IMG/VR virus record: IMGVR_UViG_3300036398_003294 | Span: 8,400 to 72,399 of that record | From: a virus | DNA: 64,000 nucleotides | Reading direction: 5' to 3' (one strand) | In this document: one piece after another, positions 18,362 to 42,287 of the stretch | Layout: each line of letters opens with the position of its first letter | How positions within the stretch are numbered: the first letter of the stretch is position 1 | Program-made: the position numbers and the translations under genes | The notes under the pieces: generated by a model | Seen by the model: only the letters and a program-made list of their open reading frames with translations | Told to the model about the DNA's origin: nothing | Database searches by the model: none

Positions 18362-21300
18362 ATGGCTATTCAAGGTGGCTATGCACCGCCCGGTGTCTAT
18401 ACTCAAACAGTTTTTGATTCACCTTTACCATCTAGCAATTTCACAGGACAAATTCCTTTATTGCTAGGTGCTGGTAAAGAAACCATTCAATCTGTTGGTG
18501 TTCAAATGATTCGTGGATCTTCTTCATCTGTAGATCAACGAATAGTGAATGAAAACATGAGTGGTCGTGCAGTATTAGGATTTAATCCTGATGGCACACC
18601 CATTCTTGGTGATTTCAATGGAACTGCAACTAAAGTGCAAGTTCAAAAATTTCCTATGGTAGATGGCACAGGTGGTGGTGTTGTTGCTACTGATAGTTCT
18701 AGTGTTACAGCTTATGTCAATGGTCAAGTCACTGTTGTTTTAAGTGTAGATGGTGCTAAAGGCATTGTAGATACTGTTTTGGTTTCTTATTTTTTTAAGA
18801 GAACAGATACCTTAGTTGAAGATGAAAATATTTCATCTCAAATCACTACTACACAAGCTGAAATCATTGGCTCAAATGGTAGCTTTGATTTCGATGCTTT
18901 AAGTAATGTTTTTGTTTTCTTAGTAGATGGTGTTCAATATTCTATTTCTTTGCCAACAGTTTCTACAGGCACAAGAGAAGATGATCTTAATAGAGTAGTT
19001 GCTATTATTAATTCAGGTTCTTATGGATCTTTAGAGGCATCTTCATACACAGATAATTTCAATCAAGAGAACTTACAATTAAATGCTAATGGTTCTATTG
19101 TTATTGGCAATGGTTCAGCTAATGCTAAACTTGGTCTTGTGGTTAATCAATCTACATCAAGAAACAAAACTTTCTTTACAAGTCATTATCCTATCGTTGA
19201 TGGTACTAATGGTGGTATCACTACTACTGATATTACTGATGTTGTAGTTAAACTTAATGGTGCTGTTATTAGTCCAGCTAGTGTAGATGGTTCTAATGGT
19301 AGTATTACTCTTAAAGATGCTCCTGCAACAGATGCTACTTTAACAGTAACCTATTACTTTAATAACTTTAGAGATCAATTTGACTACATCCCAAGCACAG
19401 GTGTTGTTAGTGTTGAATCTATTTCTCTTGTTTCTGATGGATCAGGTGGTGCATCTTCTAATTTTATTGAAGGTGTTTCATGGGTTCTTAAAGATGATAA
19501 GATTGTTTGGGGTACTTCTGTTCTTGTTGGTGCAGGTGAAACTTCTTTAGGTGCTACTGCATTTAATGACAGCCAAATCACTGCATCTTTAAAAGATGAT
19601 AAAGTTTATCTTGTTGAATGTGAAAGAGTGATTGATACAAGTGTAGTACCACCTAGAGCATTGCCAAGTACCTTTAAATTACCTTACCAACCTGTTGATG
19701 GTACAGGCTCAGGTACACCAACATCAAGAGCAGATTTAGTTGAAGTCAAGGTAGGCTATAATTTTACTGATGCGATTGAAAAAGCTAATTCAGTAGTCGT
19801 TCGTGTTAATCCTTCTGATTCTACAATCGTTTTGGCTGAAGAAGTAGAAGAAGGCAAACAAGTATATGCTACTTTCTATTATAACACTTTGACTGATTCT
19901 ACCATTGGTGGAAATAATCAATATCAATTTGTTTGTTTATCTGATGGTGCTAGTGGTTCAGGTAAATATCAAGTCTTAAAGCAAGGTAGTGCTTTGCATG
20001 ATGTTACTTTAGGTACAAAAGGTTCATCTTTAAATGGTGTAGATTTATCTTTCCCAAGTGGCAGTGAATTATTGCCTGATGCTCGTATCACTACAGGCAC
20101 ACCTGTAAATGAAACAGTAACAGTAACATTTACATCAAGCAAGCCAGCAAGTGCTTTATTTATTAGTGGTGGTGCTAGTCCATATTTCACCATTAAAGAT
20201 ACAAGTGATCAAATCAATTTATCTATTGATGAGGCAGTTGTTACAGGTGGTGTAAGTTTATCTGCTCCAACAGGTACAGGTAGATTTGGTGCGATTGCAC
20301 ATATCGTAGGTGATGTATTGCCATATACAGTAGAAAGTGGCTTGCAAGATTTAGGTACAATTAGTGCAGGTAATGACAGTCTTCAATTAAAGCTAGATAA
20401 TGATGATGTAGTCGTCAATATTGGTACTGTTGCAAATTGTACTGCTGATGATATTGCAAATGCTATTAATATTGCTTGTAATAGTGTTTCTGCTAAATAC
20501 CAAGCGATGACTACCATGAATGGTGGTGTTGAGATTATTGCAAACAGTCATGATACTTTATCTTTCCAATTTGTAGGTAATACACATGGTACAGTAGGTG
20601 AAATTGCAATCACTTTGACAGATGCTGTTTATTCCACTGCAAATGCTTTGGCAACAGAACTTGAAACACAAATTAATAGTGCATTAGTAGATGCTTTACT
20701 TCAATATGAAGTAAATGGTGTTACTCAAGGTATTATTATTTCTGTTAGTGCAAATTCACAAGGTCGATTAATTTTTAGCTTAGATCAAATTGGTAAGAAA
20801 TTTGAAATCTTAGATGCAGTAGATATCATTCCGGGCGAAGTTTATGTTATTAAAACAGTAGGTGGTACAGACTTTACAGCAGTTGGTAGTGCAGATAATA
20901 ATATAGGTACAACCTTTACTGCTGATGAGTTCGGTATCATTTTAGGTGGTGTAGGTACAGTCGTTCATGCGATTACAGAACTTGTAGAAGAAACAGCAGG
21001 TTCTTTTGTTGTTGGTGAAACATATACAATTACAGTAGCAGGTACAACAGACTTTACTTTGATTGGCGCCGCTAATAACTTAGTAGGTACAACCTTTATT
21101 GCTTTAGGTGCTGGTGCTTTAGGTACAACAGGTAAAGCTGAACGAAATGTAGACCTTGAAGATACTTATGGTTACCTTGAATTTATTAGTCAAGCTGATC
21201 CTGAAGATGATTTTGCTATTATTGCAGGTATTGACACAGATGATGCAGATGGTACACAAACTAAGTTTGGTCTTTTACCTGTTGCTCAAGTTGCATCTAC

Positions 21301-23560
21301 TTCTTTAGGTGGTGGTGCATTAAAAGAAAGATTGATCTTAAGAAATCGTTTCTTTCAAGGCAACACTTATTTCTTACCAAGTGGTGAATTAGGTATCCGT
21401 GTAGTAGCAGGTAGCTTATTAACAAAAGCAGGTTTGAAATCAAGTTTTGCATCTGCAATTAAAGGTGCAGTCGTTCAACAACCTACATTAAAGTTATTAA
21501 CAGGTTGGACAGAACAAAAGACTGCTGATAGTCAACCTGCTGTGAAGTTCTATAATGGTACTAACAATTCATATCCTGCCAATAATACTTTATTGTTAGA
21601 TGTGAATGGTACTATTGTTAGTGTAGAATTTACATCTAGTGCCACAGGTACTTTAACTTGTGTAGGTGAAAGCATTGTAGATGGTTTGATTTTGATTTCA
21701 AATTCTATTGTAGATCAAATCAATAATGCTTTTGCTGATGCAGGTGTAGATGCGATTGTAGAGGCAAGTCAAGAAGGTGCAGGCATTCGTATTGTAGGTG
21801 GTGGATCTTTTGTAAATAGTTATCTTAAAGTTTTAAATGGTAGTGCAAATGAAACTTTAGGTTTAACTGCAAACCAAACTTCTACTTCTACAAATGTAAG
21901 TGCAAGTCAAATTGTAAGTGCATTAATGAGCCATCAATCAAATACTTTAACAGATTTGCTTTTTGGTGAAACTCTTGCAAATGACTACTTTAAATCTAAG
22001 GCTGTTGCTTTTGTACATATTTCAGCTACCAATAAGCAATATTTGGCAATTGAAAGTTTAAGCACAGGTGTTGGATCTATTGTAGATTTCACAGGTGGTA
22101 ATGCAATCACAACCAAAGGCACAGGCTTAAAGATTACTACTACAGATGGTGCAGTTGGTGAAGATGCTAAACAAGGTTTCTATGTAAAATCAAGTATCTC
22201 TAATGGATCAGGTTCAGCAAACACTTCTATTTTTAATAGTGGTGTTGGTCAAGATGGTTTCATTGGTCAAACTTATGTAGATGCAGTAACAGGATTGACA
22301 TTTACCATTTTGCCAAGAGATGGTGGTGTAGATTATCCTCAAGATGCAAATGCTTTCTTTAAATGGAATGTAAGTCAAAACATCACTTGTAATGCAAATA
22401 TTCCTAAGAACTTTGTTAATGGTGTATCTGTAATCGTATCAAATACAACAGGTGTAGCAGTAGGTGATACAGCAAACCTTGAAACATTTGATAAAGGTGG
22501 CAGTGAACCTGATATTGGTCAAGTATATTATATCTCTTATACACAAGAGAAAGTAGACTACACAACAAAGGTCTTTAATAGCATTGCAGATGTAGTCGCT
22601 GAATATGGTGATATATCAACACAAAATCCATTATCTTTAGGTGCATACTTAACGATTTTGAATGGTGCAGGTACAATTGCTTGTAAGCAAATTAAGAGAT
22701 TAGCAAATACAGCTGAAATCACAGAAACACAAATGATCGAGGCAATCGATTCAATTGAAGGTGGCATCACAGCAACCTTAACACCATCTGTAATTTTGCC
22801 ATTAATCCCTGCAAGTGAAAGTTTGTTAAGTCATATTAGCAAGCATTGTGATTTACAAAGTTCATTAAGATTTAGATCTGAAAGAACAGCGATTTTAGGT
22901 TTTGCTAGTGGTACTATTCCTAAAGAGGCAGGTCGTTTGGCAAACCTTACAGGATCAAGTCGTGTTCGTGTAGTATATCCTGATATTGCAAGTTTAACTT
23001 TGACAAACACTTTGGGAAATCCTGTTACTTATATTGTAGATGGTCGTTATCTTGCTTGTGCAGTAGCTGGTACAACAACATCTCTTAATATTGATGTTGC
23101 TACCCCATGGGAATCAAGACAAGTAAATGGTTTCAATGGTGTATTGAGAAACCTTACACCTGTTGAGGCAAATGCTACAGCAGTTAAAGGTGTATCTATC
23201 CTTGAAAATGCAGGCACTACCATTAAGATTAGACATGGTTTAACAACCAATATGTCTTCTGTATTGACTAAGACACCTACAATCATTCAAATTGCAGATC
23301 AAGTTCAAAGAACGATGAGAGGTGTTTTGGATGGATTTATTGGTGTTAAGAATTTACCTGTGATTCAATCACAAGTATTGTTAGCAGTCAATAATGAATT
23401 TCAAAGACTTGTATCTAGTGGCATCATTGAATCATATACAGGTTTAGCAGTCGTTCAAGATCCTGAAGATGCAACAGGGTTATTGATTAATGCTTTCTAC
23501 AAGCCTGTATTCCCATTATTGTATATTCAATTTACATTCAATGTTCGCTCTAATGGATAG
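18362..23560 (+). CDS. Contractile tail sheath protein with large inserted domains
   Basis: N-terminal YAPPGVYTQT; C-terminal ERTAILG, RVRVVYP, IRHGLTT, YKPVFPLLYIQFTF sheath core. Confidence 0.9.
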   Translation: MAIQGGYAPPGVYTQTVFDSPLPSSNFTGQIPLLLGAGKETIQSVGVQMIRGSSSSVDQRIVNENMSGRAVLGFNPDGTPILGDFNGTATKVQVQKFPMVDGTGGGVVATDSSSVTAYVNGQVTVVLSVDGAKGIVDTVLVSYFFKRTDTLVEDENISSQITTTQAEIIGSNGSFDFDALSNVFVFLVDGVQYSISLPTVSTGTREDDLNRVVAIINSGSYGSLEASSYTDNFNQENLQLNANGSIVIGNGSANAKLGLVVNQSTSRNKTFFTSHYPIVDGTNGGITTTDITDVVVKLNGAVISPASVDGSNGSITLKDAPATDATLTVTYYFNNFRDQFDYIPSTGVVSVESISLVSDGSGGASSNFIEGVSWVLKDDKIVWGTSVLVGAGETSLGATAFNDSQITASLKDDKVYLVECERVIDTSVVPPRALPSTFKLPYQPVDGTGSGTPTSRADLVEVKVGYNFTDAIEKANSVVVRVNPSDSTIVLAEEVEEGKQVYATFYYNTLTDSTIGGNNQYQFVCLSDGASGSGKYQVLKQGSALHDVTLGTKGSSLNGVDLSFPSGSELLPDARITTGTPVNETVTVTFTSSKPASALFISGGASPYFTIKDTSDQINLSIDEAVVTGGVSLSAPTGTGRFGAIAHIVGDVLPYTVESGLQDLGTISAGNDSLQLKLDNDDVVVNIGTVANCTADDIANAINIACNSVSAKYQAMTTMNGGVEIIANSHDTLSFQFVGNTHGTVGEIAITLTDAVYSTANALATELETQINSALVDALLQYEVNGVTQGIIISVSANSQGRLIFSLDQIGKKFEILDAVDIIPGEVYVIKTVGGTDFTAVGSADNNIGTTFTADEFGIILGGVGTVVHAITELVEETAGSFVVGETYTITVAGTTDFTLIGAANNLVGTTFIALGAGALGTTGKAERNVDLEDTYGYLEFISQADPEDDFAIIAGIDTDDADGTQTKFGLLPVAQVASTSLGGGALKERLILRNRFFQGNTYFLPSGELGIRVVAGSLLTKAGLKSSFASAIKGAVVQQPTLKLLTGWTEQKTADSQPAVKFYNGTNNSYPANNTLLLDVNGTIVSVEFTSSATGTLTCVGESIVDGLILISNSIVDQINNAFADAGVDAIVEASQEGAGIRIVGGGSFVNSYLKVLNGSANETLGLTANQTSTSTNVSASQIVSALMSHQSNTLTDLLFGETLANDYFKSKAVAFVHISATNKQYLAIESLSTGVGSIVDFTGGNAITTKGTGLKITTTDGAVGEDAKQGFYVKSSISNGSGSANTSIFNSGVGQDGFIGQTYVDAVTGLTFTILPRDGGVDYPQDANAFFKWNVSQNITCNANIPKNFVNGVSVIVSNTTGVAVGDTANLETFDKGGSEPDIGQVYYISYTQEKVDYTTKVFNSIADVVAEYGDISTQNPLSLGAYLTILNGAGTIACKQIKRLANTAEITETQMIEAIDSIEGGITATLTPSVILPLIPASESLLSHISKHCDLQSSLRFRSERTAILGFASGTIPKEAGRLANLTGSSRVRVVYPDIASLTLTNTLGNPVTYIVDGRYLACAVAGTTTSLNIDVATPWESRQVNGFNGVLRNLTPVEANATAVKGVSILENAGTTIKIRHGLTTNMSSVLTKTPTIIQIADQVQRTMRGVLDGFIGVKNLPVIQSQVLLAVNNEFQRLVSSGIIESYTGLAVVQDPEDATGLLINAFYKPVFPLLYIQFTFNVRSNG

Positions 23561-24831: not shown

Positions 24832-27432
24832 ATGTTTTCAGATTTCTTTGAATCACTACAAAGACCAGATGTTAAACCTAAAAAATGGATGAGAGAAGTA
24901 GATCTCATTTTAGGTACAAAAGATAATATTAAACAAGCTATTGATGAGTGTTTAGCATCTAGTCATTATGGCATAGACTTAGAAACAACAGGTTTAGATA
25001 ATCGTGTTTTTCATGGTAGAACAAGAGCATCTATTGTAGGTATTTCTATTGCACCTAATGAAAAGAAAGCATATTATTTTCCTATTAGACATAGTGCAGG
25101 TACAGAACATAATGTTTCATGGTCAATTATAGATAGAGAATTTAGTCGCTTGCTCAGTGTAAATGCTACAGCTATTCCTGTGTTTCATAATGGTGCTTTC
25201 GATCAAGAGTTTTTAGAATATAATGGAGAAACTCTTTTAGGTAAAGAACGATTTGAAAATCCAAAGTTATGGGAAGATAACTATATTATGGCTTGTCTTA
25301 TGAATAGTCGTGATAAAGGTGGTCGTGGTCTTAAAGATATGTCTAAAGATAAATTAGGTTGGGAAATGATCGAACTTGATGAACTCATTCCTAAATCTAA
25401 AATTAAAGATTATTCTACTCTTGATCCATCTTGGGAAGCCTGTGTTTGGTATGCAGGTGCAGATGCTTTATGTACTCTTAAACTCTATAATATCTTAAAA
25501 GACTTGTTTCCTAAAGAAATGATTAGTCTTTATATGATCGAAAAGAAATGCAATACTTCAGTTAGGTGGATGCACAGAAACAGAGTTTATATTGATCAAA
25601 AGAAAACACAAGAGTTTATTAAGATTGGTCAAAAGGAATGGATGGATAGTCTTATTGAAGTGTATGAAGGTGCAAAGGAATTACTTGGTAGAGATGTCAT
25701 GCCTGCATACATTAAAATTATGAAAGGTGATCTAAAAGGTGTCAATAAGTTTAACACGGATAATACAGACAGCTTTAAAGATTGCATAGACGAGGCAAGA
25801 AAAGAAGCTGATCGTATGTATCCACATTTAGATATGGCAGGTGAAGATTTTGTAGCTAGAAAAATGGTAGCATCTTTGACTAATCCAAAACAAAAAGAAG
25901 AAGTAGTCTTTGAATATAAATATGATATTTTATCATCTCAACAATTAGGCATGATGTTTAGAGAATTAGAAGTACCTAATTTACAAACTACAGCAAGTGG
26001 ACAAGTCGCAACAGGTGCAGATGTTTTAGATGAAGTGATTGAAGAGGCATCGGATACTTTTCCATTTGTAAGAAAGATTAAAAGATTAAGAGAACTAGCT
26101 AAAGCACTTGGTCAATATCTTATACCTATGAAAGAGGATGTTGCAGATGATGGTACATTAAAACCAAAATTTAATCAGTTTGGAGCAGATACAGGTCGTT
26201 TTAGTTGTGGTACAACAAGTAAGCCATGGGAGACAAAAGATGGTGGTTGTAGAGTACCTTTTCAAGGCATACCATCAGGATATGATCCAAAAAGACCAAT
26301 GATTACTTCAAGGTTAAGAGAATGTATAGCAGTAAGAAATCCTGATCATTATTTAGTGGCAATTGACTATGCAGGTGTTGAATTAAGAATTGTAACAAAT
26401 ATTAGTCAAGAGCCTTTATGGATTGAAGAATTTTTTAGATGTTCATCATGCAATCGTAAATACACTAAAGAAAGAGGTGAAGATGGATTTCCTATCGTAC
26501 CACCAGCTATTTGTATTTGTGGATCAGATAAGATAGGTGATTTGCATACATTGACAGCAGTTGCTTTTTATGGCGAAGAGGCAAAGAAAAGACCTGATTG
26601 GAAAGCATTAAGAGGCAATGCAAAAGGTGTAAACTTTGCATTATGTTATGGTGGTACAGGTAAAGCAGTGGTTAGAACGATTAACTGTACACAAGAAGAA
26701 GGTGATGAGAAATACCAAACCTTTACAAAGACATATAAAGGTTTAACAAAGTGGTGGAAAAAGGAAGTGGATTTTGCCAAAGAGAATGGATATGTATTAA
26801 CAGCATTTGGTCGAAGAATGTTGATGCCTGATATTAAATCTAAAGAGTTTTCTTTGAGATCAAAGGATGAACGAAAGGCAGTAAATTCACCTGTGCAAGG
26901 TACAAGTGCAGATATTACTAAGATTGCAATGAGTTTAATTTATGAGAATGTTAAAAAGAGAAATTGGTTTGACAAGCTAATGATGATTTTAACAGTGCAT
27001 GATGAAATTGTATTTGAAATCCATAAAGATATCATAGGCGAGGCAATACCATTGTTATGTGATATTATGGTAAGGAATAAAGCATTGCAAAATAAGAATT
27101 GGATTGTGCCTTTAACAGTGGATGTAGAAATAGGTAAAGATTGGTCTGTGCCTTATGATTTGAAAGAGTTAAGAGAAGGCAAAGGAGAAGATGAATTTTT
27201 AGTGAATGCTTTTAAAGTGGATCATAGTGGACAGCCAAAGCCAAAGGTATTAAATGAAACTACCTTAAGCACAGAGCAAGAAGAAAAAACAAAGCATTAT
27301 GAGATTTACGAATTGAATGAGTTATCGTATAGTGAGGCAGATCGATTATCTGAATGGATTAAGTTAAATACAGGTAAAGACATTAAGATTATGTATCAAG
27401 GTAGAGATGTATCTATCTTATTAAAGGATTAA
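24832..27432 (+). CDS. polA: Family A DNA polymerase with 3'-5' exonuclease
   Basis: ExoI DLETTG, ExoII FHNGAFD, ExoIII YAGAD; TGRFS; motif A DYAGVELRI; motif B KGVNFALCYG; NSPVQGTSADI; motif C VHDE. Confidence 0.97.
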   Translation: MFSDFFESLQRPDVKPKKWMREVDLILGTKDNIKQAIDECLASSHYGIDLETTGLDNRVFHGRTRASIVGISIAPNEKKAYYFPIRHSAGTEHNVSWSIIDREFSRLLSVNATAIPVFHNGAFDQEFLEYNGETLLGKERFENPKLWEDNYIMACLMNSRDKGGRGLKDMSKDKLGWEMIELDELIPKSKIKDYSTLDPSWEACVWYAGADALCTLKLYNILKDLFPKEMISLYMIEKKCNTSVRWMHRNRVYIDQKKTQEFIKIGQKEWMDSLIEVYEGAKELLGRDVMPAYIKIMKGDLKGVNKFNTDNTDSFKDCIDEARKEADRMYPHLDMAGEDFVARKMVASLTNPKQKEEVVFEYKYDILSSQQLGMMFRELEVPNLQTTASGQVATGADVLDEVIEEASDTFPFVRKIKRLRELAKALGQYLIPMKEDVADDGTLKPKFNQFGADTGRFSCGTTSKPWETKDGGCRVPFQGIPSGYDPKRPMITSRLRECIAVRNPDHYLVAIDYAGVELRIVTNISQEPLWIEEFFRCSSCNRKYTKERGEDGFPIVPPAICICGSDKIGDLHTLTAVAFYGEEAKKRPDWKALRGNAKGVNFALCYGGTGKAVVRTINCTQEEGDEKYQTFTKTYKGLTKWWKKEVDFAKENGYVLTAFGRRMLMPDIKSKEFSLRSKDERKAVNSPVQGTSADITKIAMSLIYENVKKRNWFDKLMMILTVHDEIVFEIHKDIIGEAIPLLCDIMVRNKALQNKNWIVPLTVDVEIGKDWSVPYDLKELREGKGEDEFLVNAFKVDHSGQPKPKVLNETTLSTEQEEKTKHYEIYELNELSYSEADRLSEWIKLNTGKDIKIMYQGRDVSILLKD

Positions 27433-27439
27433 ATTAAAA

Positions 27440-27664
27440 ATGATCTGTTGGTTTGAAAATCATAGCAATACCATACAATACAATCCCACTCATGTATTTT
27501 TGTCGTCTTCAATATCTAATAACAAGCATGGTTTTCCTATATTAAATAAAGAGAGTTTTAGAAATTCAGTATCTCTTTTTTTAAGTAGGTCAAATACAAA
27601 TAGCAATTGGATAATCCAGCCTAATGTGTACTTAAAACCAAGTAAAGGAAATAAGTTAAAATGA
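27440..27664 (+). CDS. Array member 1 (putative TRD-like mini-protein)
   Basis: MICWFEN...SFRNSVSLFLSR...W...YLKP. Confidence 0.85.
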   Translation: MICWFENHSNTIQYNPTHVFLSSSISNNKHGFPILNKESFRNSVSLFLSRSNTNSNWIIQPNVYLKPSKGNKLK

Positions 27665-27888
27665 TTTTTAGTTTTGAGATGTCGGCAAATGAAGTGAAAA
27701 GAAATACAAGATTTGTGTTAATCACATCAAGTTCTTTTGGTAATACAGGAGTTCCTATTCAAGAAAACAATTTTAGAGATGCCTTAGCTTTCTATATTGT
27801 TAGGACAGGTGGTCTTATGGATTCAAGAAAATATGAGAATTGGCATCGTGCTAATGATATGTATTTTAAACCTAATGGGGATAAATAA
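27661..27888 (+). CDS. Array member 2 (most divergent)
   Basis: MIFSFE...NFRDALAFYIVR...W...YFKP. Confidence 0.8.
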   Translation: MIFSFEMSANEVKRNTRFVLITSSSFGNTGVPIQENNFRDALAFYIVRTGGLMDSRKYENWHRANDMYFKPNGDK

Positions 27889-27891
27889 AAA

Positions 27892-28119
27892 ATGATCTGT
27901 TGGTTTGAAAATTCAAATAATGACATCACTTCTATTGATTCTCATGTTTTCTTTTTATCTTGTGTATCAAGTAGGCATTCAGGATATTATATAGATGAGA
28001 AAAACTTTAGGCAGAATATATCTATATATATAGCAAGAGGAAGGGATGTTATAAATAGAACATGGGTGAATAATTGTGATCGGTATTATGCACCACATCT
28101 TAATAAGGAGGGTAAGTAA
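27892..28119 (+). CDS. Array member 3
   Basis: MICWFEN...NFRQNISIYIAR...W...YYAP. Confidence 0.85.
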   Translation: MICWFENSNNDITSIDSHVFFLSCVSSRHSGYYIDEKNFRQNISIYIARGRDVINRTWVNNCDRYYAPHLNKEGK

Positions 28120-28121
28120 AA

Positions 28122-28340
28122 ATGATCTGTTGGTTTCACTCACATGGCAATTTAGTTCGATATAATAAAGAGATCGTGTTTCTGATAAACAATTATCAAG
28201 GAGCAGGTTTCCATATACATAAGGGAGATTCATTTAGAAGATCAATCGCTTTATTTAACACAAGAGCCTTAGTACAGCCTAACGGAAAAAATTGGTATAT
28301 GGATTGTGATGTTCATTTAGCACCAAATGGAGATAAGTAA
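28122..28340 (+). CDS. Array member 4
   Basis: MICWFH...SFRRSIALFNTR...W...HLAP. Confidence 0.85.
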   Translation: MICWFHSHGNLVRYNKEIVFLINNYQGAGFHIHKGDSFRRSIALFNTRALVQPNGKNWYMDCDVHLAPNGDK

Positions 28341-28342
28341 AA

Positions 28343-28567
28343 ATGATATGTTGGTTTGAAAATGATAGTAATAATGTAATGTCAAATACAAATTTTGTAT
28401 TTCTAATGAGTTCGATCTCAAGTCGTCATTCAGGTATGTATTTACAAGAAGAAAATTTTAGATTAGGAATAGCTTTATACATAGCTAGAGATAGAAAACT
28501 CATTAAACCAAATTGGAAGTATGATATTGATCCGTATTTTAAGCCAAATGGAGATAAGTTAAAATGA
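28343..28567 (+). CDS. Array member 5
   Basis: MICWFEN...NFRLGIALYIAR...W...YFKP. Confidence 0.85.
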   Translation: MICWFENDSNNVMSNTNFVFLMSSISSRHSGMYLQEENFRLGIALYIARDRKLIKPNWKYDIDPYFKPNGDKLK

Positions 28568-28782
28568 TTTGTTGGTTTGAGAATGATAGTAATGATGTTC
28601 GCTCAATAGATAACTATGTTTTTCTATTAGGTTCTATATCTAGTCGTAAAACAGGATTCCATTTACACAACCAAAATTTTCGTTTAGGTATGGCATTATA
28701 CCTAGCAAGAGGAAGGGATGTTATAAATAAGACATGGATAAATCAATCTGATGCCTATTTAGCACCAAAGGATAAAAAATGA
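28564..28782 (+). CDS. Array member 6
   Basis: MICWFEN...NFRLGMALYLAR...WINQSDAYLAP. Confidence 0.85.
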   Translation: MICWFENDSNDVRSIDNYVFLLGSISSRKTGFHLHNQNFRLGMALYLARGRDVINKTWINQSDAYLAPKDKK

Positions 28783-29003
28783 TTTGTTGGTTTGTCAATA
28801 AAGGTAATGCACCTGAAGCTAATGAACATAATGTTTTTTTATTGTCTAGTGTATCGCCCAAAAGAGTAGGTGAGATGGTAGATGAAAGAAACTTTAGAAG
28901 GTTTGTAGCTTTATCTACAGCAAAGGGTAGAGAAGTCGTAGGTCGAGGTGAGTGGATTTTAAACCATAATTTATATTTAGCACCTAAGAAAGGATTAAGA
29001 TAA
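28779..29003 (+). CDS. Array member 7
   Basis: MICWFVN...NFRRFVALSTAK...W...YLAP. Confidence 0.85.
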   Translation: MICWFVNKGNAPEANEHNVFLLSSVSPKRVGEMVDERNFRRFVALSTAKGREVVGRGEWILNHNLYLAPKKGLR

Positions 29004-29004
29004 A

Positions 29005-29223
29005 ATGCTATATTGGTTTCATCATGGTGGAAATAGATTTCAATATAATGAAAAGCTATGTCACTATATCAACAATTATGAGGGAGCTGGTCTTGTGATC
29101 ACAAAAGAAAACTTCAGAAGATGTATGGCATTGTCGATTGCAAGAGCAAGAGAAATCGTAGGCAGGAATAATTGGATAGTGGACTCTGATTTATATATTT
29201 CACCAAAGGATAAGATAAAATGA
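29005..29223 (+). CDS. Array member 8
   Basis: MLYWFH...ENFRRCMALSIAR...W...YISP. Confidence 0.85.
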   Translation: MLYWFHHGGNRFQYNEKLCHYINNYEGAGLVITKENFRRCMALSIARAREIVGRNNWIVDSDLYISPKDKIK

Positions 29224-29450
29224 TCTGTTGGTTTGAGAATGTAGGCAGTTGCACTACAACAAATAGAGTAGTTTGTTATATGGTATCTTATCCGTCACCT
29301 AGTGGAAATGGTATTTGTATCTATGCAGGCTCAAACTTTAGAGAATTTATTTCTTTTTCTGTTTGTAAAAGTGATTATCTCATTCCACAATCAAATTGGC
29401 TTACACATAGTAATAGATACCTAGCACCTAAGAAAGATAAGTTAAAATGA
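29220..29450 (+). CDS. Array member 9
   Basis: MICWFEN...NFREFISF...W...YLAP. Confidence 0.85.
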   Translation: MICWFENVGSCTTTNRVVCYMVSYPSPSGNGICIYAGSNFREFISFSVCKSDYLIPQSNWLTHSNRYLAPKKDKLK

Positions 29451-29659
29451 TCTGTTGGCTTAATAATAATAGTAATGATGTTTTTCAGAATACAATGACT
29501 GTGTTTTTAATATCCTCATTTGCAAGTAAGGCACATGGACTTTATGTACATAAAGAAAATTTTAGAAATTCGATATCTCTTTTTTTAAGTAGATCTAATA
29601 CAAATAGCAATTGGATAAATCAATCAGATGCCTATCTAGCACCTAAGAAAGATAAATAA
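29447..29659 (+). CDS. Array member 10
   Basis: MICWLNN...ENFRNSISLFLSR...WINQSDAYLAP. Confidence 0.85.
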   Translation: MICWLNNNSNDVFQNTMTVFLISSFASKAHGLYVHKENFRNSISLFLSRSNTNSNWINQSDAYLAPKKDK

Positions 29660-29661
29660 AA

Positions 29662-29877
29662 ATGATCTGTTGGTTTGAAAACCTAAACAACACTGTGCAA
29701 ACGATTCAATTTCAAGTTTATTTTATGTCTTCTAAATCATCACAAGCACATGGATATTATTTGGATGAAAAAAGTTTTAGACAAAATATATCTATCTATA
29801 TAGCAAGAGGAAGAGATGTTATATTTACTACATGGATAAACCAATCAGATGTGTATTTAGCACCTAAGAAAGGATAA
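29662..29877 (+). CDS. Array member 11
   Basis: MICWFEN...SFRQNISIYIAR...WINQSDVYLAP. Confidence 0.85.
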   Translation: MICWFENLNNTVQTIQFQVYFMSSKSSQAHGYYLDEKSFRQNISIYIARGRDVIFTTWINQSDVYLAPKKG

Positions 29878-29884
29878 AGTTAAA

Positions 29885-30388
29885 ATGAAAGATTTATTAT
29901 TTGAATGCAATGATCAAGGCATGACAGAAAAAGAATTTACTGAAATGTTTTGTAAGGTATGCAAAAATAGAAAATGTGCAAGAGCAAGTTGGGCATTTTC
30001 TTCATGGGATGAAAGAATTAATACTCAATATGATAGATTTTTTCATACACCTACTATAAAGCAATCTGAAGCCTCTCAATATAAAGGCATCAGTGATTTT
30101 GAAGAATACCATATCAATCCTGTAGTCGATATATGGACACCTGCAAGTTTAGATTTTAGTAAATCACAACCTAAACATTATAAGATAGAACAAGATATTT
30201 CTCAATCATCCATTGAGAAACCTATCTTATCACAGCATGATGAAATAAACACACCTGTGCAAAACCTATATTTTATAGGTGACAGTAAACAACAAGTACA
30301 ACCACAACAACAAACCATTCAACAAGACGAATGGTCTTTGCCACCTAAAACTTTAAAAGTTGGTGGCAAGTTTCAAATGGGAAAATAA
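29885..30388 (+). CDS. Hypothetical protein with N-terminal Cys cluster
   Basis: C...CKVCKNRKC; low-complexity Q-rich C-terminal half. Confidence 0.75.
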   Translation: MKDLLFECNDQGMTEKEFTEMFCKVCKNRKCARASWAFSSWDERINTQYDRFFHTPTIKQSEASQYKGISDFEEYHINPVVDIWTPASLDFSKSQPKHYKIEQDISQSSIEKPILSQHDEINTPVQNLYFIGDSKQQVQPQQQTIQQDEWSLPPKTLKVGGKFQMGK

Positions 30389-30955: not shown

Positions 30956-31219
30956 ATGACAGTATCAGAAAAATTAGCACAAGCGATTGCACAATTACAA
31001 GCAGTAGTTTCCGATGTTGAATCTGCTGAAAAAGGTAAGCTCAAACCAAGTGTACGAGCAAGAAAAGAACTTTTAACAGTTTCTAAATCTTTAAATGGTT
31101 TAAGAAAAGAATTGTTGGAAGTAGCTAAAGCAGAAAAAGAAAAGAGAAAAGCTGAAAAGGAAGCCAATCCTAAAAAGAAATATGCAACAGGCTTTGCGAT
31201 TAAGAAAGCTAAAGCCTAA
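30956..31219 (+). CDS. Histone H1-like (Hc1-family) basic DNA-binding protein
   Basis: D.E..EKG......RARK.L....K....LRK pattern and K/A-rich tail. Confidence 0.65.
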   Translation: MTVSEKLAQAIAQLQAVVSDVESAEKGKLKPSVRARKELLTVSKSLNGLRKELLEVAKAEKEKRKAEKEANPKKKYATGFAIKKAKA

Positions 31220-32491: not shown

Positions 32492-33052
32492 TTAAAATCC
32501 TTTTCTTTTTCTTAGAGATGCCATCACTTGACGACCTTCTGTGTTAATTTCACGATCTACCATAAGAGCAGGTCTACGAACCATGTAGTTGGGCCATTTT
32601 TCTGACCACTTGGAATAAAAGGTACTTGAATCCACAATGCGAACAGTTTGATCAGGATCAGGGATATTTGGATCAGCTACATAAACATCCATATTACCAT
32701 CAGGTTTTTCAACTACATCAAAGACTAAACTAGCATGACTCCATTCTCTACCTTCAGGATTCCAAGAGATAAGAACAGGTTTACCTAGATCAGTCCAGCC
32801 TTTAACTTGCTTTAATGTGGAAGGTACAACTAAAGTGCCTCTACATCCATAATGTTGAAGGCAAGCTAAAACTTCTTCCCATCTAGCACCTTGCATAGGT
32901 TTAGCACCAATTACTTTTTGAACTTCATCTTCTGATGTATCAAAACCTAAAGCATTTAATGCCATAGCTGTAGATGCAGATACACAAGAGTATTGTGTTC
33001 TTTGCCTTACAGGATTGACATTAGCTTTGGCAATACGATTATTAAAAAACAT
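32492..33052 (-). CDS. C39-like cysteine peptidase (start revised to MFFNNR)
   Basis: QRTQYSC (Q...C), WSHASLV (H), YVADP (D); AAAGG RBS before 33052. Confidence 0.8.
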   Translation of the reverse strand: MFFNNRIAKANVNPVRQRTQYSCVSASTAMALNALGFDTSEDEVQKVIGAKPMQGARWEEVLACLQHYGCRGTLVVPSTLKQVKGWTDLGKPVLISWNPEGREWSHASLVFDVVEKPDGNMDVYVADPNIPDPDQTVRIVDSSTFYSKWSEKWPNYMVRRPALMVDREINTEGRQVMASLRKRKGF

Positions 33053-33130
33053 AGGAATAGAACCTTTCATCTTTATATGTATGCAAGATAGATTGAATAT
33101 AAAAAGAATATGAAAAAAAGTTTTAAAAAG

Positions 33131-33159
33131 TTGCAATAGATGCTTATCCATAAGTGTTT
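33131..33159 (+). promoter_or_regulatory. Conserved motif copy 5
   Basis: ttgcaat agat gc ttatccat aagtgttt. Confidence 0.75.
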
Positions 33160-37247: not shown

Positions 37248-40241
37248 ATGCTTACTGCATACCTAAACCAACTCAAAGATATTAAATCTCGTAACGGTTC
37301 TGAATACTCTTACAGACCTGCACTTAAATCCATTCTTAAAGGTCTTGTCTTTACTGATGAACCAACAGGCAAAGGTAAAAATAAAATCGATATGGAAGTC
37401 TATACTCAAAATTCTTTGGTAGCTTTCTATATCGAAACTAAAAACCTTAATGAAGACTTATCCCATCCAAAACACCAAGACCAATTCAATAGATATAAGC
37501 AGGCATTTCCTAAATTGCTTATCACTAACTTTATTGACTTTGAATTTTACCAAGATGGCAACTTGCTGGATAAATGCACATTATCTGATGCTCTTAGCTT
37601 TGATAAGTTTAACACCTTGCTAGATAATTTCATGGCAAGCACTATCCAATTTAATAGTCCTTTGGCATTAGCTAAAAAACTTGCAGATAAAACCAAATCC
37701 TTAAAATCTGAAATCCTGTCTACTTTAAATACAGATGATCTTGAAATTGAGCAGAAGATTAAAACTAAAAAGAAGTACAAGCTAGTAGCATATAGGAATG
37801 AATTTAAGAAAATGCTTATTGAGGATATTGATAACAATCAATTTGCAGACCTGTATGCACAAACTTTAACTTATGGTTTATTTGCATCAAGATACTATGC
37901 TTATCAAAAAGATCCTAATGCTATCTTTACTAGATCAGATGCCTCGAATCTTATCCCAAATACCAATCCTTTATTAAAGCAATTCTTTGATACCATCAGT
38001 AATGATAAAAATGAATTATCCCAAAGCATTAACAATTTAATTGATGCCATCACTGTCATTTTAGCTAATACAGATATGTCTAAAATCATCTCTTCTTTAA
38101 AGCTGGCTAACAATGATATTGTCATTCACTTTTATGAAAACTTCCTTGAGCAATATGATCCAGAATTAAGAAAGCAAATGGGTGTTTGGTATACACCTGT
38201 AGAAGTAGTGAACTATATTGTCAAAGGTGTAGATGAATTATTAAAAACTAAGTTTGCTATTAAAGATGGTATTTCATCTAGTGAAAAGCAATCATATACC
38301 TATACTAAAAAAGTAAAGGTAGGCAAAGATTCATATAAAACAGAAACCTGCATTAAAGATAATGTGCATAAAGTACAGATTTTAGATCCTGCTACAGGCA
38401 CAGGTAATTTTTTAAATTCAGTAGTGGAATACATTAAGACAAATTACAAGTACTCATCCTTATGGAATGACTATGTAAATAAAGACTTGATACCTAGATT
38501 AAATGGATTTGAATTGATGATGCCTTCTTATGTGATGGCTCACATGAAGATGTATGAATTATTAAAAGACAGTTTAACAGAAGATACAGACAGGTTTAAC
38601 ATTTACTTAACAAACACCTTAAATGGTGCAGTGGATGTAGAAGAGCATTTATTAAGTGTAAGTGATTTGGTATATCAATTAAATGAAGAGGCAATAGGTG
38701 CAAATAGAGTAAGACAAGAACAGCCTGTGATGGTAGTCTTAGGTAATCCTCCTTATAATGGTAATAGTAAGAATAATGGTACTTTTATCACTGAACTTAT
38801 GAGTGAATATGCACAGAAAGGTAAAAATATTGGCAAAGGTCTTAATGATGATTACATTAAGTTTATTAGATATGGACAATCTCTTATTGATCAAAACCAA
38901 TCAGGTATTCTAGCTTATATCTCAAATAATAGTTTTATCAAAAGCCTTGCCTGCTCCAAAATGAGAGAGTCTTTATTAGGAAGTTTTGATGAGATTTATA
39001 TTCTCAATTTACATGGTGATAAAGATGAGAATATTTTTAGTATCACCACACCTGTCTGCATATCATTCTTTGTTAAGACTAATAAGAAAGCAGTAGGTAA
39101 ATTAGGTAAAGTCTTTTATCATGAGATTAAAGGTTTAAAATCAGATAAAATCTCTTATTGTACTAATCAAGTCTTGAATGAAGATTTTAAAGAGATTGAG
39201 ATTATAGGTGATGAGAAGTATTTTTATTCTCAAGATGTTACAATTTTCAATCAGTATAATCAAAACTCTTTTGCTTTGTGTGATTTATTCTTAGAAAAAC
39301 AGCAAGGGGTTTTAACAGCTTGTGATGATTTAGTCGTGGATACTAATAAAGAAAGATTAGAACTAAAAATAAAATTATACCAAGATGTAGGTCAACTACC
39401 CATTTCTATTGAAAAAAGCAAAGAAACAAAAAGAAGTGCTAAATATCATTTAAAAAACTTAAAAAATAAAAAAGGGAAGATTAAATTGTTTCCTTATAGA
39501 CCTTTTGATATTAGAGTGCTTTATGATTCAGATATGGTTCTTTTTAAGAAAAAAGAACTAACACAGCATGAACAAGTACATGAAAATATCTATTTTAATT
39601 TCACTCCTAATTGTTGGGATAAAAACAATTACTCTCATATCTTAATATCCAAAAATACACCTTGTAATCATCTTTTTGCACATGGGACTACATACACAGC
39701 ACCTTTATATCTCCACTCACCTAATGTTATTGATCCATCTGCTCCTCAATTCACATCTAACCTAAACACTACCATCACAGCTAAATTCACTTCCCTTGAA
39801 TCCACCATCACAGATTTAGATATTGTAGACTATATTTATGGTGTGCTTAATGATAAAGCATACACTACTAAATACAATCAGTTTCTTAAATCTAATTATC
39901 CAAAAGTACCTTATCCAAAAGATATTGATACTTTCAATACTTATAAAGATGCAGGCAGTAAACTTAGACAAGTTCATCTCGATGATAACACTCAAGATGC
40001 ACAATCCACTTATAATGCCACTACCAATAATAAGATTGAAAAAGTTTCTTTTGATGCAGATAAAGTATATTTCAATAAGTCCAGCTACTTCGATAACATT
40101 TCTCAAGAGATGTGGGATTTTAAAATAGGAGCAAGCCAACCTTTAAAGAATTGGTTAGAAAGTAGAAAAGAAGATACCTTTGACCAAACCATGATTGAGC
40201 AATATTTAAATGTTGTATATAAAGTAAGAAACTCTCTATAA
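37248..40241 (+). CDS. Single-chain RM protein: putative PD-(D/E)XK N-terminus, N6-adenine MTase, Type ISP-like C-terminal specificity domain
   Basis: SEYSYRPAL, ID...YIETK; GVWYTP; ILDPATGTGNF; GNPPY; YRPFD; APLYL; DYIYGVL...FLK..YP.VP. Confidence 0.88.
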   Translation: MLTAYLNQLKDIKSRNGSEYSYRPALKSILKGLVFTDEPTGKGKNKIDMEVYTQNSLVAFYIETKNLNEDLSHPKHQDQFNRYKQAFPKLLITNFIDFEFYQDGNLLDKCTLSDALSFDKFNTLLDNFMASTIQFNSPLALAKKLADKTKSLKSEILSTLNTDDLEIEQKIKTKKKYKLVAYRNEFKKMLIEDIDNNQFADLYAQTLTYGLFASRYYAYQKDPNAIFTRSDASNLIPNTNPLLKQFFDTISNDKNELSQSINNLIDAITVILANTDMSKIISSLKLANNDIVIHFYENFLEQYDPELRKQMGVWYTPVEVVNYIVKGVDELLKTKFAIKDGISSSEKQSYTYTKKVKVGKDSYKTETCIKDNVHKVQILDPATGTGNFLNSVVEYIKTNYKYSSLWNDYVNKDLIPRLNGFELMMPSYVMAHMKMYELLKDSLTEDTDRFNIYLTNTLNGAVDVEEHLLSVSDLVYQLNEEAIGANRVRQEQPVMVVLGNPPYNGNSKNNGTFITELMSEYAQKGKNIGKGLNDDYIKFIRYGQSLIDQNQSGILAYISNNSFIKSLACSKMRESLLGSFDEIYILNLHGDKDENIFSITTPVCISFFVKTNKKAVGKLGKVFYHEIKGLKSDKISYCTNQVLNEDFKEIEIIGDEKYFYSQDVTIFNQYNQNSFALCDLFLEKQQGVLTACDDLVVDTNKERLELKIKLYQDVGQLPISIEKSKETKRSAKYHLKNLKNKKGKIKLFPYRPFDIRVLYDSDMVLFKKKELTQHEQVHENIYFNFTPNCWDKNNYSHILISKNTPCNHLFAHGTTYTAPLYLHSPNVIDPSAPQFTSNLNTTITAKFTSLESTITDLDIVDYIYGVLNDKAYTTKYNQFLKSNYPKVPYPKDIDTFNTYKDAGSKLRQVHLDDNTQDAQSTYNATTNNKIEKVSFDADKVYFNKSSYFDNISQEMWDFKIGASQPLKNWLESRKEDTFDQTMIEQYLNVVYKVRNSL

Positions 40242-40262: not shown

Positions 40263-42287
40263 ATGACTTATGAAAATACACTTCCTATAGAAGTTAGAAA
40301 AAAATTAGGTGTTTGGTACACACCAACCGAAATAGTAGAATATATGGTTAAAGGGATTGAGAACTTATTAAATTCTAAATTCAATCTTCCTTTAGATAGT
40401 CAAGATATTCAAATCCTTGATCCTGCTACAGGCACAGGAACTTTTATTGACTGTCTAGTCAATAAAGTTTCTTTAGCAGAAATACATGGGATTGAAATTG
40501 ATCCTGATGCTTATGAGATAGCATCAGAGAAGTTTAAAGATTTAGATAATGTGAAGGTATATAATTTAAATACTTTGGAAGGTGCATTAAAACTAAAATC
40601 ATCTAAAGTGAGAGTAGTCTTAGGCAATCCACCTTATAATGGCAACAGTAAGAATAATGGTGATTTTATCACTGAACTTATGAACTCTTATAAGGTTAGT
40701 AATAAAAATATAGGCAAGGGACTTAATGATGATTACATTAAGTTTATTAGATATGGACAATCTCTTATTGATCAAAACCAATCAGGTATTCTAGCTTATA
40801 TCTCAAATAATAGCTTTATCCAAAGCCTTGCTTGTTCTAAAATGAGAGATTCGTTATTAAATAGCTTTGATGAGATTTATATCTTAAATTTACATGGGGA
40901 TAAAGATGAGAATGTTTTTAGTATCACTACTCCTGTTTGTATCTCATTCTTTGTTAAGACTAATAAGAAAGTAGCTGGTAAAGTCTTTTATCATGAGATT
41001 AAAGGTTTAAAATCAGATAAAATCTCTTATTGCCTTAACAGCACTCTAAATTTAGATTTTAAAGAGATTGAGATTATAGGTAGTGAGAAATATTTTATTC
41101 CACAAGATGTGGATGCTATAAAGGATTATAACAAAAACTCTTTTAGTTTAGATGATTTGTTCTTAACTAAGGGACAAGCTATATTAACAGCTTGTGATGA
41201 TCTTGTAATCGACACTAATAAAACCAATCTCTTAAATAAGATCAATGACTTTCAAACAAAAGGATGGCTACCTGAGAAAATAGAAAATGGTGCAGACTCG
41301 GAACATACAGGTAAGATTAAATTAAGATCATTAAAAAATAAAGATGGTGAAGTTAAACCATTTGCATATAGACCATTTGACAATCGCTTTATTTATGATT
41401 CGGATATGGTGCATAGAAGAAAAACTGAACTAACACAACATGATCAAGTACAAGGCAACATTTATTTGAATAATGCTAGAACAGGTAAGATTAAATTAAG
41501 ATCATTAAAAAATAAAGATGGTGAAGTTAAACCATTTCCATATAGACCTTTTGATACTAGATTTATTTATGATTCGGATATGGTTTTGTATAGAAAAGAA
41601 ACACTGACAGAACATGATCAAGTCATAGGAAATATCTATATTAACTTTAAACATAATTGTTGGGATAAAAACGACTTTACACATATCTGTATCTCAAAAA
41701 ACACACCATCAAATGAATTTTTTGCACATGGTGCAACATACACAGCACCTCTATACCTACACTCTCCATATCATTTAAATCCTACTGCTCCTCAATTCAC
41801 ATCTAACTTAAACCATATCATTAAATCTAAATTCACTTCCCTTGATCCTTCTATCACAGACTTGGATATTATTGACTATATTTATGGTGTCCTCAACGAT
41901 AAGAACTACACCACTAAATATAACCAATTCCTTAAATCTAATTATCCAAGAGTACCTTATCCTAAAGACACTATTGAATTTAATGTCTATAAGGATAAAG
42001 GCACTACTCTTAGACTTGTTCATCTTGATGATAAAACAGAAGATGAACAGTCTACCTTTAATGCCACCACTAATAATAAGATTGAAAAAGTTTCTTTTGA
42101 TGCAGATAAAGTGTATTTCAACAAGACTAGCTACTTCGATCAAATCACACAAGAGATGTGGGATTTTAAAATAGGTGCAAGTCAACCTTTAAAGAATTGG
42201 TTGGAAAGCAGGAAAGAAGATACTTTTGACCAAGCTATGATTGAGCAATATTTAAATGTCATTTATAAAGTAAGACATTCTATCTAA
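40263..42287 (+). CDS. N6-adenine MTase paralog lacking the nuclease-like N-terminus
   Basis: GVWYTP, ILDPATGTGTF, GNPPY, YRPFD twice; long near-identical blocks with upstream gene. Confidence 0.88.
   Translation: MTYENTLPIEVRKKLGVWYTPTEIVEYMVKGIENLLNSKFNLPLDSQDIQILDPATGTGTFIDCLVNKVSLAEIHGIEIDPDAYEIASEKFKDLDNVKVYNLNTLEGALKLKSSKVRVVLGNPPYNGNSKNNGDFITELMNSYKVSNKNIGKGLNDDYIKFIRYGQSLIDQNQSGILAYISNNSFIQSLACSKMRDSLLNSFDEIYILNLHGDKDENVFSITTPVCISFFVKTNKKVAGKVFYHEIKGLKSDKISYCLNSTLNLDFKEIEIIGSEKYFIPQDVDAIKDYNKNSFSLDDLFLTKGQAILTACDDLVIDTNKTNLLNKINDFQTKGWLPEKIENGADSEHTGKIKLRSLKNKDGEVKPFAYRPFDNRFIYDSDMVHRRKTELTQHDQVQGNIYLNNARTGKIKLRSLKNKDGEVKPFPYRPFDTRFIYDSDMVLYRKETLTEHDQVIGNIYINFKHNCWDKNDFTHICISKNTPSNEFFAHGATYTAPLYLHSPYHLNPTAPQFTSNLNHIIKSKFTSLDPSITDLDIIDYIYGVLNDKNYTTKYNQFLKSNYPRVPYPKDTIEFNVYKDKGTTLRLVHLDDKTEDEQSTFNATTNNKIEKVSFDADKVYFNKTSYFDQITQEMWDFKIGASQPLKNWLESRKEDTFDQAMIEQYLNVIYKVRHSI
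41307..41654 (+). repeat. In-frame 174-bp (58-aa) tandem duplication in the specificity domain
   Basis: TGKIKLRSLKNKDGEVKPF.YRPFD starts at 41307 and 41481; first 57 bp identical. Confidence 0.92.

Follow-up and report, generated by a model that had tools for sequence, protein, structure and literature searches.

The region analyzed here, referred to as the window, is a stretch of 64,000 nucleotides (nt) of the IMG/VR virus record IMGVR_UViG_3300036398_003294 (positions 8,400 to 72,399), from a large freshwater phage, in which an array of 11 small paralogous genes directly follows a DNA polymerase gene. The polymerase gene (24832-27432, + strand) encodes a family-A enzyme of 866 amino acids (aa), assigned by tblastn to annotated phage polymerases, whose product shares 98.0% identity with the polymerase of the related phage G002 and 90.9% with that of G001, a complete relative (rated 100%) of 316 kb. 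The array (27440-29877, + strand) begins 7 nt past the polymerase stop codon and consists of 11 open reading frames (ORFs) of 70-76 aa: copies 1 (27440-27664, 74 aa), 2 (27661-27888, 75 aa), 3 (27892-28119, 75 aa), 4 (28122-28340, 72 aa), 5 (28343-28567, 74 aa), 6 (28564-28782, 72 aa), 7 (28779-29003, 74 aa), 8 (29005-29223, 72 aa), 9 (29220-29450, 76 aa), 10 (29447-29659, 70 aa) and 11 (29662-29877, 71 aa), all on the + strand. Every ORF starts with ATG and lacks internal stops, five of them ending in TGA and six in TAA, and a purine-rich stretch precedes each of these intact frames. From copy 1 to copy 11, the junctions measure -4, 3, 2, 2, -4, -4, 1, -4, -4 and 2 nt, corresponding to five ATGA-type overlaps of 4 nt and five gaps of 1-3 nt. 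The ORF list and these measurements bear out the first-pass annotation, a model's reading of the sequence alone, which had described 11 intact, coupled paralogs starting 7 nt after the polymerase with no pseudogene among them. Downstream, the array is bounded in the window, G001 and G002 by a conserved gene, which in the window encodes 167 aa (29885-30388, + strand) and has no Pfam matches.

Reading frame differs across nine of the ten junctions, only copies 2 and 3 having a frame in common, and a single long gene with a recoded stop codon is therefore ruled out. An assembly artifact is likewise excluded, since the array was recovered piecewise, with 0 differing letters, in contigs from four other lake-water runs belonging to four studies. 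A hidden Markov model (HMM) search of the whole 72.4-kb record returned these 11 copies and no further ones, and no terminator-like site was seen on the + strand inside the array.

In the alignment of the 11 proteins, residues M1, G31, F40, R41, W57 and P67 (copy-1 numbering) are invariant and I2, W4, F5, N10 and Y64 nearly so, while the variable positions are concentrated at about 6-9, 11-18, 24-30, 32-37 and 50-62. Pairwise amino-acid identity ranges from 25 to 65%, with a median of 37%. The earlier description of a fixed scaffold interrupted by variable segments agrees with these conserved positions and with the clustering of the variability, but two of the scaffold elements that it listed are not fixed: the initial MICWF reads MIFSF in copy 2, MLYWF in copy 8 and MICWL in copy 10, and the aspartate of the D.Y..P motif is replaced by asparagine in three copies.

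The mini-proteins are stand-alone homologs of a module that is internal to a family of methyltransferase-like proteins. A profile built from the 11 copies, which copy 1 matches at E 3e-30 and which copy 5, aligned with its paralogs, also matches, was searched against 1.84 billion representative proteins and retrieved 275 of them at E<=1e-3. Among the best 150 matches, 80 are free-standing proteins of <=100 aa and 42 are proteins of >450 aa with an internal module; single-module enzymes were matched at E 1e-7 to 1e-12 and multi-module enzymes at values down to 1.7e-42. Copy 10 shares 43% identity with residues 596-670 of one 835-aa enzyme, P0055 (E 1.9e-13), and in a joint alignment the window copies run in register with the module of the single-module enzymes over the full module length. 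A resemblance to an internal segment of Type IIG-like N6-adenine methyltransferase proteins had been put forward in the first-pass annotation; the profile matches uphold it, and the family consensus fits the residue pattern given there.

The module comprises about 68 aa and is flanked by the catalytic domain on one side and a helical C-terminal domain on the other, occupying residues 330-397 in the 561-aa protein P0081. The N6-adenine methyltransferase motifs F-x-T-P and N-P-P-Y are present in the long members of the family, the NPPY motif being invariant, and many of these proteins also have an N-terminal segment bearing what we read as a D..ExK-like motif, a segment with zero family matches. 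Several enzymes contain tandem modules in one chain according to the module HMM, namely P0001 with five, P0004 with four, P0002 with three, and P0016 and P0031 with two each. P0001 (1004 aa) is permuted, its C-terminal-type helical domain preceding the catalytic domain and the chain ending after the fifth module. In a search for viral sources of these multi-module proteins, no locus was found for P0004 and only 30%-identical loci for P0001. Two further proteins among the 25 long matches scanned, P0030 and P0032, each with eight short stretches and an EB-module or neuropeptide Pfam match, look like unrelated repeat proteins and were left out.

The family occurs widely among bacterial and archaeal genomes, 319 of the 419 candidate stretches having been confirmed. 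One member from Clostridium lies among AAA ATPase, reverse transcriptase and TnpB genes, a defence-island-like setting. Pfam N6_Mtase was detected in only two of the 25 long matches scanned, methyltransferase-type Pfam domains being absent in the other 23, and NCBIfam holds no name for these enzymes; the family is therefore effectively undescribed. PADLOC models gave weak, generic Type II methyltransferase matches for P0055 and P0081 and none for P0151, an enzyme described below, or for any mini-protein. For the mini-proteins themselves, Pfam and PHROGs scans returned only sub-threshold chance matches, and neither blastn of the array nor tblastn of copy 6 found a match in 50,697 phage records. 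Against PDB sequences, the 11-member profile gave only matches at E>1 and P0055 nothing relevant.

A modification enzyme lacking exactly this segment, which the first-pass annotation had supposed as a possible partner, exists in sister phages, always with free modules downstream. In G001 and in a second sister phage, G003, an ORF of about 520 aa matches P0055 at residues 259-592 and 654-834 in one frame, the module core being missing. The module-less enzymes P0151 and P0152 have 0 matches to the module HMM, and the window mini-proteins occupy exactly the alignment columns that are absent from these two proteins. In place of the module, a linker of about 40 aa is kept in all 14 representatives of the module-less clade (67-91% identity), which argues that the module-less enzyme is a stable architecture and not a product of decay. 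Behind this enzyme, G001 carries seven mini-genes and G003 eight plus four, with overlapping stop and start codons.

The relation between internal and free modules was examined at 86 loci from viral and metagenome contigs, collected with the module-less clade as query, whose ORFs were scored with the module HMM and an enzyme HMM. The module-less clade accounts for 30 loci (28 non-duplicate), and the internal module is absent in all 28 non-duplicate enzymes. A free module lies within <=200 nt past the enzyme stop in 24 of the 24 module-less loci with >=250 nt of downstream sequence, and the four loci with <250 nt downstream hold 0, 1, 0 and 0 free modules. In total, 150 free modules are found at these 24 loci, at 1-12 per locus, the first starting between -3 and +186 nt from the enzyme stop. 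The other family members occupy 56 loci (46 non-duplicate), of which 43 have the internal module and three are truncated with none detected; no free module was found in the fetched flanks of any of the 39 module-bearing loci with >=250 nt downstream. Given this split, 24 of 24 against 0 of 39, the module is present in one of two forms, in cis or in trans, with no locus of the comparison having both forms or lacking both. A further ORF of G001 (L189, 1305-2291, - strand) encodes a free-standing protein of 328 aa that matches the first ~150 residues of the 835-aa enzymes (28% identity, E 6e-10) and keeps the D..ExK-like motif; no counterpart was found in the window's fragmentary record. In this lineage, the single-chain enzyme may have been split into three kinds of genes.

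Structural models suggest that the module may fall within a region associated with DNA recognition in related enzymes. The AlphaFold model of P0081 has a predicted local distance difference test (pLDDT) score of 92.6 and a predicted template modelling score of 0.90, and its module is formed by strands at 331-335, 347-350 and 359-362 and a helix at 364-379; the model of a free module, copy 6, has a pLDDT of 82.5, with strands at 3-7, 19-22 and 31-34 and helices at 14-18 and 36-48. A strand-strand-strand-helix pattern is common to the two predicted models. By structural alignment, the P0081 model matches DrdV (Z 19.3, root-mean-square deviation (rmsd) 4.0, 274 residues aligned), MmeI (Z 18.4, rmsd 4.0, 259 aligned; model residues 1-393 on chain residues 171-818), CamA (Z 18.1, rmsd 4.7, 372 aligned; model residues 11-558) and M.TaqI (2np6_A; Z 17.1, rmsd 4.1, 299 aligned; model residues 30-406). 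Further matches include M.BseCI, LlaGI and BrxX, the top enzymes scoring Z 15.7-19.3 with DNA-bound gamma-class enzymes among them, while Type I M subunits and BsaXI also match the catalytic half of the model. The aligned ranges with MmeI, M.TaqI and CamA span the module, as judged from the first and last aligned residues, and going by these end-points the modelled module would lie inside the region that corresponds to the recognition halves of MmeI, M.TaqI, CamA and M.BseCI.

Docking of a free module onto a module-less enzyme is predicted by co-folding, as the first-pass annotation had anticipated for an array member and a partner lacking the segment. P0151 and copy 6 were co-folded, both with alignments, in three runs and with three controls, and the pair scored 0.90 (runs 0.88, 0.90 and 0.90) versus 0.00 for the best control; a mark of 0.90 is reached by 58 of 80 solved complexes and by two of 110 mismatched pairs. 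The runs share >=92% of their contacts, and the partners have a pLDDT of >=86. Within the module-less clade, the predicted interface residues of the enzyme vary far less than the remainder (0.13 versus 0.69 bits, p 2.4e-10), and across 84 module sequences the predicted-interface positions are more conserved than the exposed ones (2.26 versus 2.70 bits, p 0.014). In the model, the interface corresponds to the conserved scaffold, and two hypervariable loops, at about 14-18 and 28-31 in copy 6, are among the exposed positions. A joint function of mini-proteins and module-less enzyme is, in our judgment, probable, more so than the full mechanism set out below.

Array size and content were compared in related phages. 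Between the polymerase and the conserved downstream gene (161-167 aa), the window carries 11 copies, G002 seven and G001 two, and orthologs of window copies are present in both relatives: in G002 for copies 2 (89% identity), 3 (85%), 4 (83%) and 8 (94%), and in G001 for copy 9 (74%). The number of modules per genome is at least 13-19. At a third site in G001 (L020, G001:C1:208287-208942), three weak module matches (E 4e-6 to 8e-5) possibly represent diverged or decayed cassettes. Copies 2, 4, 6, 7, 9 and 11 (W2, W4, W6, W7, W9 and W11) have counterparts of 86-96% identity in the enzyme-adjacent arrays of other clade members, five of them matching the array of one locus, L162 (copy 2, 96%; copy 4, 92%; copy 6, 90%; copy 7, 86%; copy 9, 89%), and copy 11 matching that of L158 (87%). 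Since these six window copies are nearly identical to enzyme-adjacent ones, both arrays appear to draw on one cassette pool.

The most conserved DNA in the array consists of junctions of about 36 nt (27423-29680), each comprising the purine-rich cassette end, the stop codon and the next start; the 3' end of the polymerase gene, down to its last codons, and the start of the downstream gene resemble such a junction. In one contig of run X2, 433 nt of copies 7 and 8 (28776-29210) are replaced by 429 other letters, a weak observation resting on a single contig with a short flank, and an extra ATA is present behind 29209 in single contigs of X2, X3 and X4. These variants suggest that different versions of the array co-exist in lake populations. 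Gain, loss and exchange of cassettes by recombination fits the conserved junctions, the copy numbers of 2, 7 and 11 and the replacement in X2.

For four window-G002 ortholog pairs, the pooled ratio of nonsynonymous to synonymous substitution rates (dN/dS) is 0.10 at a dS of 0.75, compared with 0.04 at a dS of 0.28 for the polymerase. The segments that differ most between paralogs, in the variable N-terminal part, are identical between orthologs, and the changes cluster in the last few residues. Judging from these comparisons, each copy is a maintained, specialised protein under purifying selection, and the combination of purifying selection and loop retention argues against both silent cassettes and continuing hypermutation. 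A hypermutation or diversity-generating mechanism operating at present was rejected on the same ground, the variable segments being identical across orthologs despite synonymous divergence, though no search for a reverse transcriptase was made.

We propose that the module was removed from the enzyme in this lineage, a core of about 520 aa being supplied by one gene and the modules by translationally coupled arrays, one behind the core gene and a second, the one carried by the window, behind the DNA polymerase gene. Each module would dock non-covalently in a conserved pocket that is normally filled by the in-cis module, using its conserved scaffold (the first strand, the NFR helix and the W..D.Y..P tail), and would leave the paralog-specific loops exposed, where they could set the DNA sequence to be methylated. 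One core served by 11 or more modules would allow the phage genome to be marked at many motifs during replication, which in turn might protect it from many host restriction systems, and the conserved cassette junctions would permit cassettes to be gained, lost and exchanged by recombination. Within this scheme, the module homology, the module-less enzyme itself, its strict co-occurrence with free modules and the purifying selection are observed, physical docking is a prediction from modelling, and the specificity role, the multispecific methylation and the anti-restriction purpose are what we infer. Taken as a whole, the mechanism of exchangeable in-trans specificity modules serving multispecific self-methylation is the reading that we favor, with some reserve.

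Several observations weigh against it. The partner enzyme gene is not in the window's 72.4-kb record, a fragment rated 23% complete in which the only matches to the family are modules, and the window array adjoins the polymerase and not an enzyme; the partner of the window modules is thus a putative one, deduced from G001, G003 and 26 other loci. For copies 1, 3, 5, 8 and 10 (W1, W3, W5, W8 and W10), the best enzyme-adjacent counterparts sampled are only 40-65% identical. The isolated module model had zero matches in a Foldseek search of the PDB at E<=0.001, and among the 48,161 chains compared by VIA-align the highest Z was 2.4 (rmsd 3.9, 52 residues aligned). Within the full-length family the module is not the most variable part, its mean entropy of 1.85 bits lying between those of the preceding linker (1.98 bits) and the catalytic domain (1.52 bits), and the stretch 251-280 of the catalytic half reaches 2.2-2.6 bits. 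Moreover, the two co-folded partners correspond to halves of one chain in relatives, and the alignment of the core included module-bearing relatives, so that the high co-folding score may reflect only likeness to the fused form. The predicted interface takes up 54 of the 72 module residues, leaving 18 exposed, and the contrast between interface and exposed positions within the 11 window copies (1.56 versus 1.95 bits, p 0.06) is not significant.

Some of these points would suit mini-proteins that dock onto the enzyme but do not read DNA, serving instead as interchangeable regulators or adaptors, for instance as an on/off switch, in timing, or in recruitment to the replisome or other partners. 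Docking under this explanation rests on the same data as under the specificity reading, the placement of one array immediately after the polymerase gene, as in the window, G001 and G002, would be natural for it, and both the lack of detectable likeness between the isolated module and solved recognition domains and the fact that other parts of the full-length proteins vary more than the module are in its favor. We nevertheless consider it unlikely: regulation has no need for 11-19 diverged paralogs, each with loops conserved between orthologs, proteins with 2-5 modules in cis look more like multispecific than like regulated enzymes, and the module would, by the aligned end-points, fall within the part that aligns with the recognition halves of MmeI, M.TaqI, CamA and M.BseCI. 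The same location of the array has been weighed for a role in polymerase function or replication unrelated to methylation, the similarity to the enzyme module then being mere domain re-use. The start of the array 7 nt past the polymerase stop, the lack of a terminator-like site within it on the + strand and the conservation of this location in G001 and G002 all agree with such a role, yet near-identical cassettes stand behind the methyltransferase gene in other phages, G001 has only two polymerase-adjacent copies compared with seven behind the enzyme, and the conserved scaffold residues coincide with the predicted enzyme contacts; we regard this explanation as very improbable.

A different purpose, already raised in the first-pass annotation, is that of decoys or inhibitors which block restriction by binding either host restriction-modification (RM) enzymes belonging to this family or the DNA sites of those enzymes, many variants being directed at many enzymes. 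Diversified small phage proteins are typical of counter-defence, and full-length members of the family are common across bacteria and archaea, with one member in a defence-island-like setting and a D..ExK-like N-terminal motif, by our reading, in many members. Host enzymes, however, have their module in cis and hence no empty pocket, the orthologs are under purifying and not diversifying selection, and decoys leave both the missing module of the phage enzyme and the pattern of 24 of 24 versus 0 of 39 loci without explanation. This complementary distribution makes a decoy role less likely, and we judge it improbable. The last explanation considered, and one to which we give scarcely any credence, is a silent store in which the ORFs would not be functional proteins; by recombining into an expression site, the cassettes would switch the specificity of a methyltransferase, after the manner of phase-variable hsdS loci. 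Conserved junctions of about 36 nt do flank every cassette, copy number varies as 2, 7 and 11 among close relatives, and one contig has two cassettes replaced; against this, the 28 non-duplicate module-less enzymes are all without a module at an expression site, the window cassettes each come with an ATG, an upstream purine-rich stretch and an uninterrupted frame, and a dN/dS of about 0.10 indicates selection on the protein.

A bolder form of the exchangeable-module mechanism can be put forward only tentatively. A single-chain Type IIG-like enzyme might have been dismantled into a nuclease-like N-terminal protein, of the kind seen in G001, a methyltransferase core whose pocket is empty, and a library of at least 13-19 DNA readers of 70 aa, a system that would write, and perhaps cut, at many motifs and whose specificities would be swapped by recombination. 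Were this three-gene reading true, the mini-proteins would be the smallest autonomous specificity subunits known and would constitute a natural, modular and programmable DNA-targeting platform. Even in the more conservative form, a recognition unit has apparently been turned into a separate protein of about 8 kDa encoded in expanding, shrinking and exchanging arrays; should each module confer a motif, sequence-specific DNA enzymes would have gained a new architecture. The proposed mechanism, if true, would also explain many small, unannotated, tandem phage genes (80 of the best 150 profile matches), define a function for an unnamed methyltransferase family with a wide distribution among bacteria and archaea, and offer a compact scaffold for engineering methyltransferase specificity.

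The window encodes two methyltransferases of its own, of 997 aa (37248-40241, + strand) and 674 aa (40263-42287, + strand), both with Pfam N6_Mtase and Type_ISP_C domains. They match one and the same PADLOC Type IIG model of 1096 positions, the one at E 8e-168 (positions 1-502) and the other at E 3e-91 (positions 546-817), and the pair may be a split or duplicated Type IIG-like enzyme. These proteins had been named as candidate partners of the mini-proteins, a suggestion that our data do not favor: they share only the catalytic domain with the module-bearing family and have their own Type ISP-type specificity domain, and are therefore not expected to be the partners. No match to Type_ISP_C (PF18135) was obtained for the 11 mini-proteins (E up to 1) or for the 25 long matches scanned, and hhalign of the mini-protein alignment against both window methyltransferases gave a probability of 0.2%, with no module-like segment.

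Other features of the window are recorded here as separate observations. In the last part of an ORF of 2853 aa (44253-52814, + strand), the GC skew is extremely negative (-0.48 to -0.58 at 50-52 kb) and far from that of the rest of the window. The last ~90 residues of a 1732-aa ORF (18362-23560, + strand) match the C-terminal domain of phage tail sheath proteins just under the Pfam cut-off, and the protein would be unusually long if sheath-like. Downstream of the array are genes for a lysine-rich protein of 87 aa resembling the chlamydial histone-like protein Hc1 (30956-31219, + strand; 22.9 bits, cut-off 23.5) and for a C39-like peptidase of 219 aa (32492-33151, - strand). The nearest polymerase in the phage collection is that of LR745208.1, a 485-kb uncultured phage, at 285050-289927 (48% identity); it matches in three pieces over 4.9 kb, which suggests a gene with insertions such as introns or inteins.

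Among known systems, the single-chain Type IIL, IIG and ISP enzymes and orphan gamma-class methyltransferases (MmeI, DrdV, LlaGI/LlaBIII, BrxX, CamA, M.BseCI and M.TaqI) share with the module-bearing family a common plan, a catalytic domain followed by a C-terminal DNA-recognition region, which in the family is a putative one. Models of the MmeI and Type ISP specificity domains are unmatched by the mini-proteins and by the 25 long proteins, which at the sequence level sets the family apart from these groups, and for none of these known enzymes do we know of a description in which a 70-aa protein forms a detached recognition part. The first-pass annotation had likewise known of no system with this layout, and no description of free-standing mini recognition modules, or of such arrays, was found in the open-access literature (PMC, bioRxiv).

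The S subunits of Type I and Type IIB systems offer a second comparison. In PMC3510504 the S subunit is presented as a protein of its own that supplies DNA specificity to the gamma-class N6-adenine methyltransferase to which it binds; the two genes are adjacent, often with overlapping stop and start codons. The likeness of the mini-genes to HsdS and to the Type IIB S proteins of BsaXI and BcgI is a separate gene coupled to the methyltransferase gene, as at 24 of 24 loci, while the window array is coupled to the polymerase gene. HsdS-type subunits have several hundred residues and two recognition domains joined by long conserved helices, with one subunit per enzyme. The mini-proteins, in contrast, consist of 70-76 aa and one small α/β unit, no fold match of the mini-protein model to solved S subunits was detected, and 1-12 genes are present per locus and at least 13-19 per genome.

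The nearest parallel in working principle comes from phage enzymes with several specificities, of which the proposed scheme would be the in-trans counterpart. Phages escape restriction by methylating their own DNA, and the multispecific methyltransferases of temperate Bacillus phages are reportedly treated in Trautner et al. 1996. According to the EcoSal Plus review PMC12707154, which cites that work, these enzymes combine one core with several short target-recognising units, and many sites are thereby protected. The C5 enzymes of the SPR, phi3T and rho11 type resemble the present system in joining one phage-encoded core to several recognition units, and P0001, P0002, P0004, P0016 and P0031, with their tandem modules, are the direct N6-adenine counterpart of such multispecific enzymes. 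The Bacillus phage enzymes modify cytosine at C5 and hold their units in one polypeptide, whereas the core considered here is a gamma-class N6-adenine methyltransferase and the units, absent from the enzyme in this lineage, are separate proteins of about 72 aa; the window system is not a member of the Bacillus C5 type, but its working principle may be the same.

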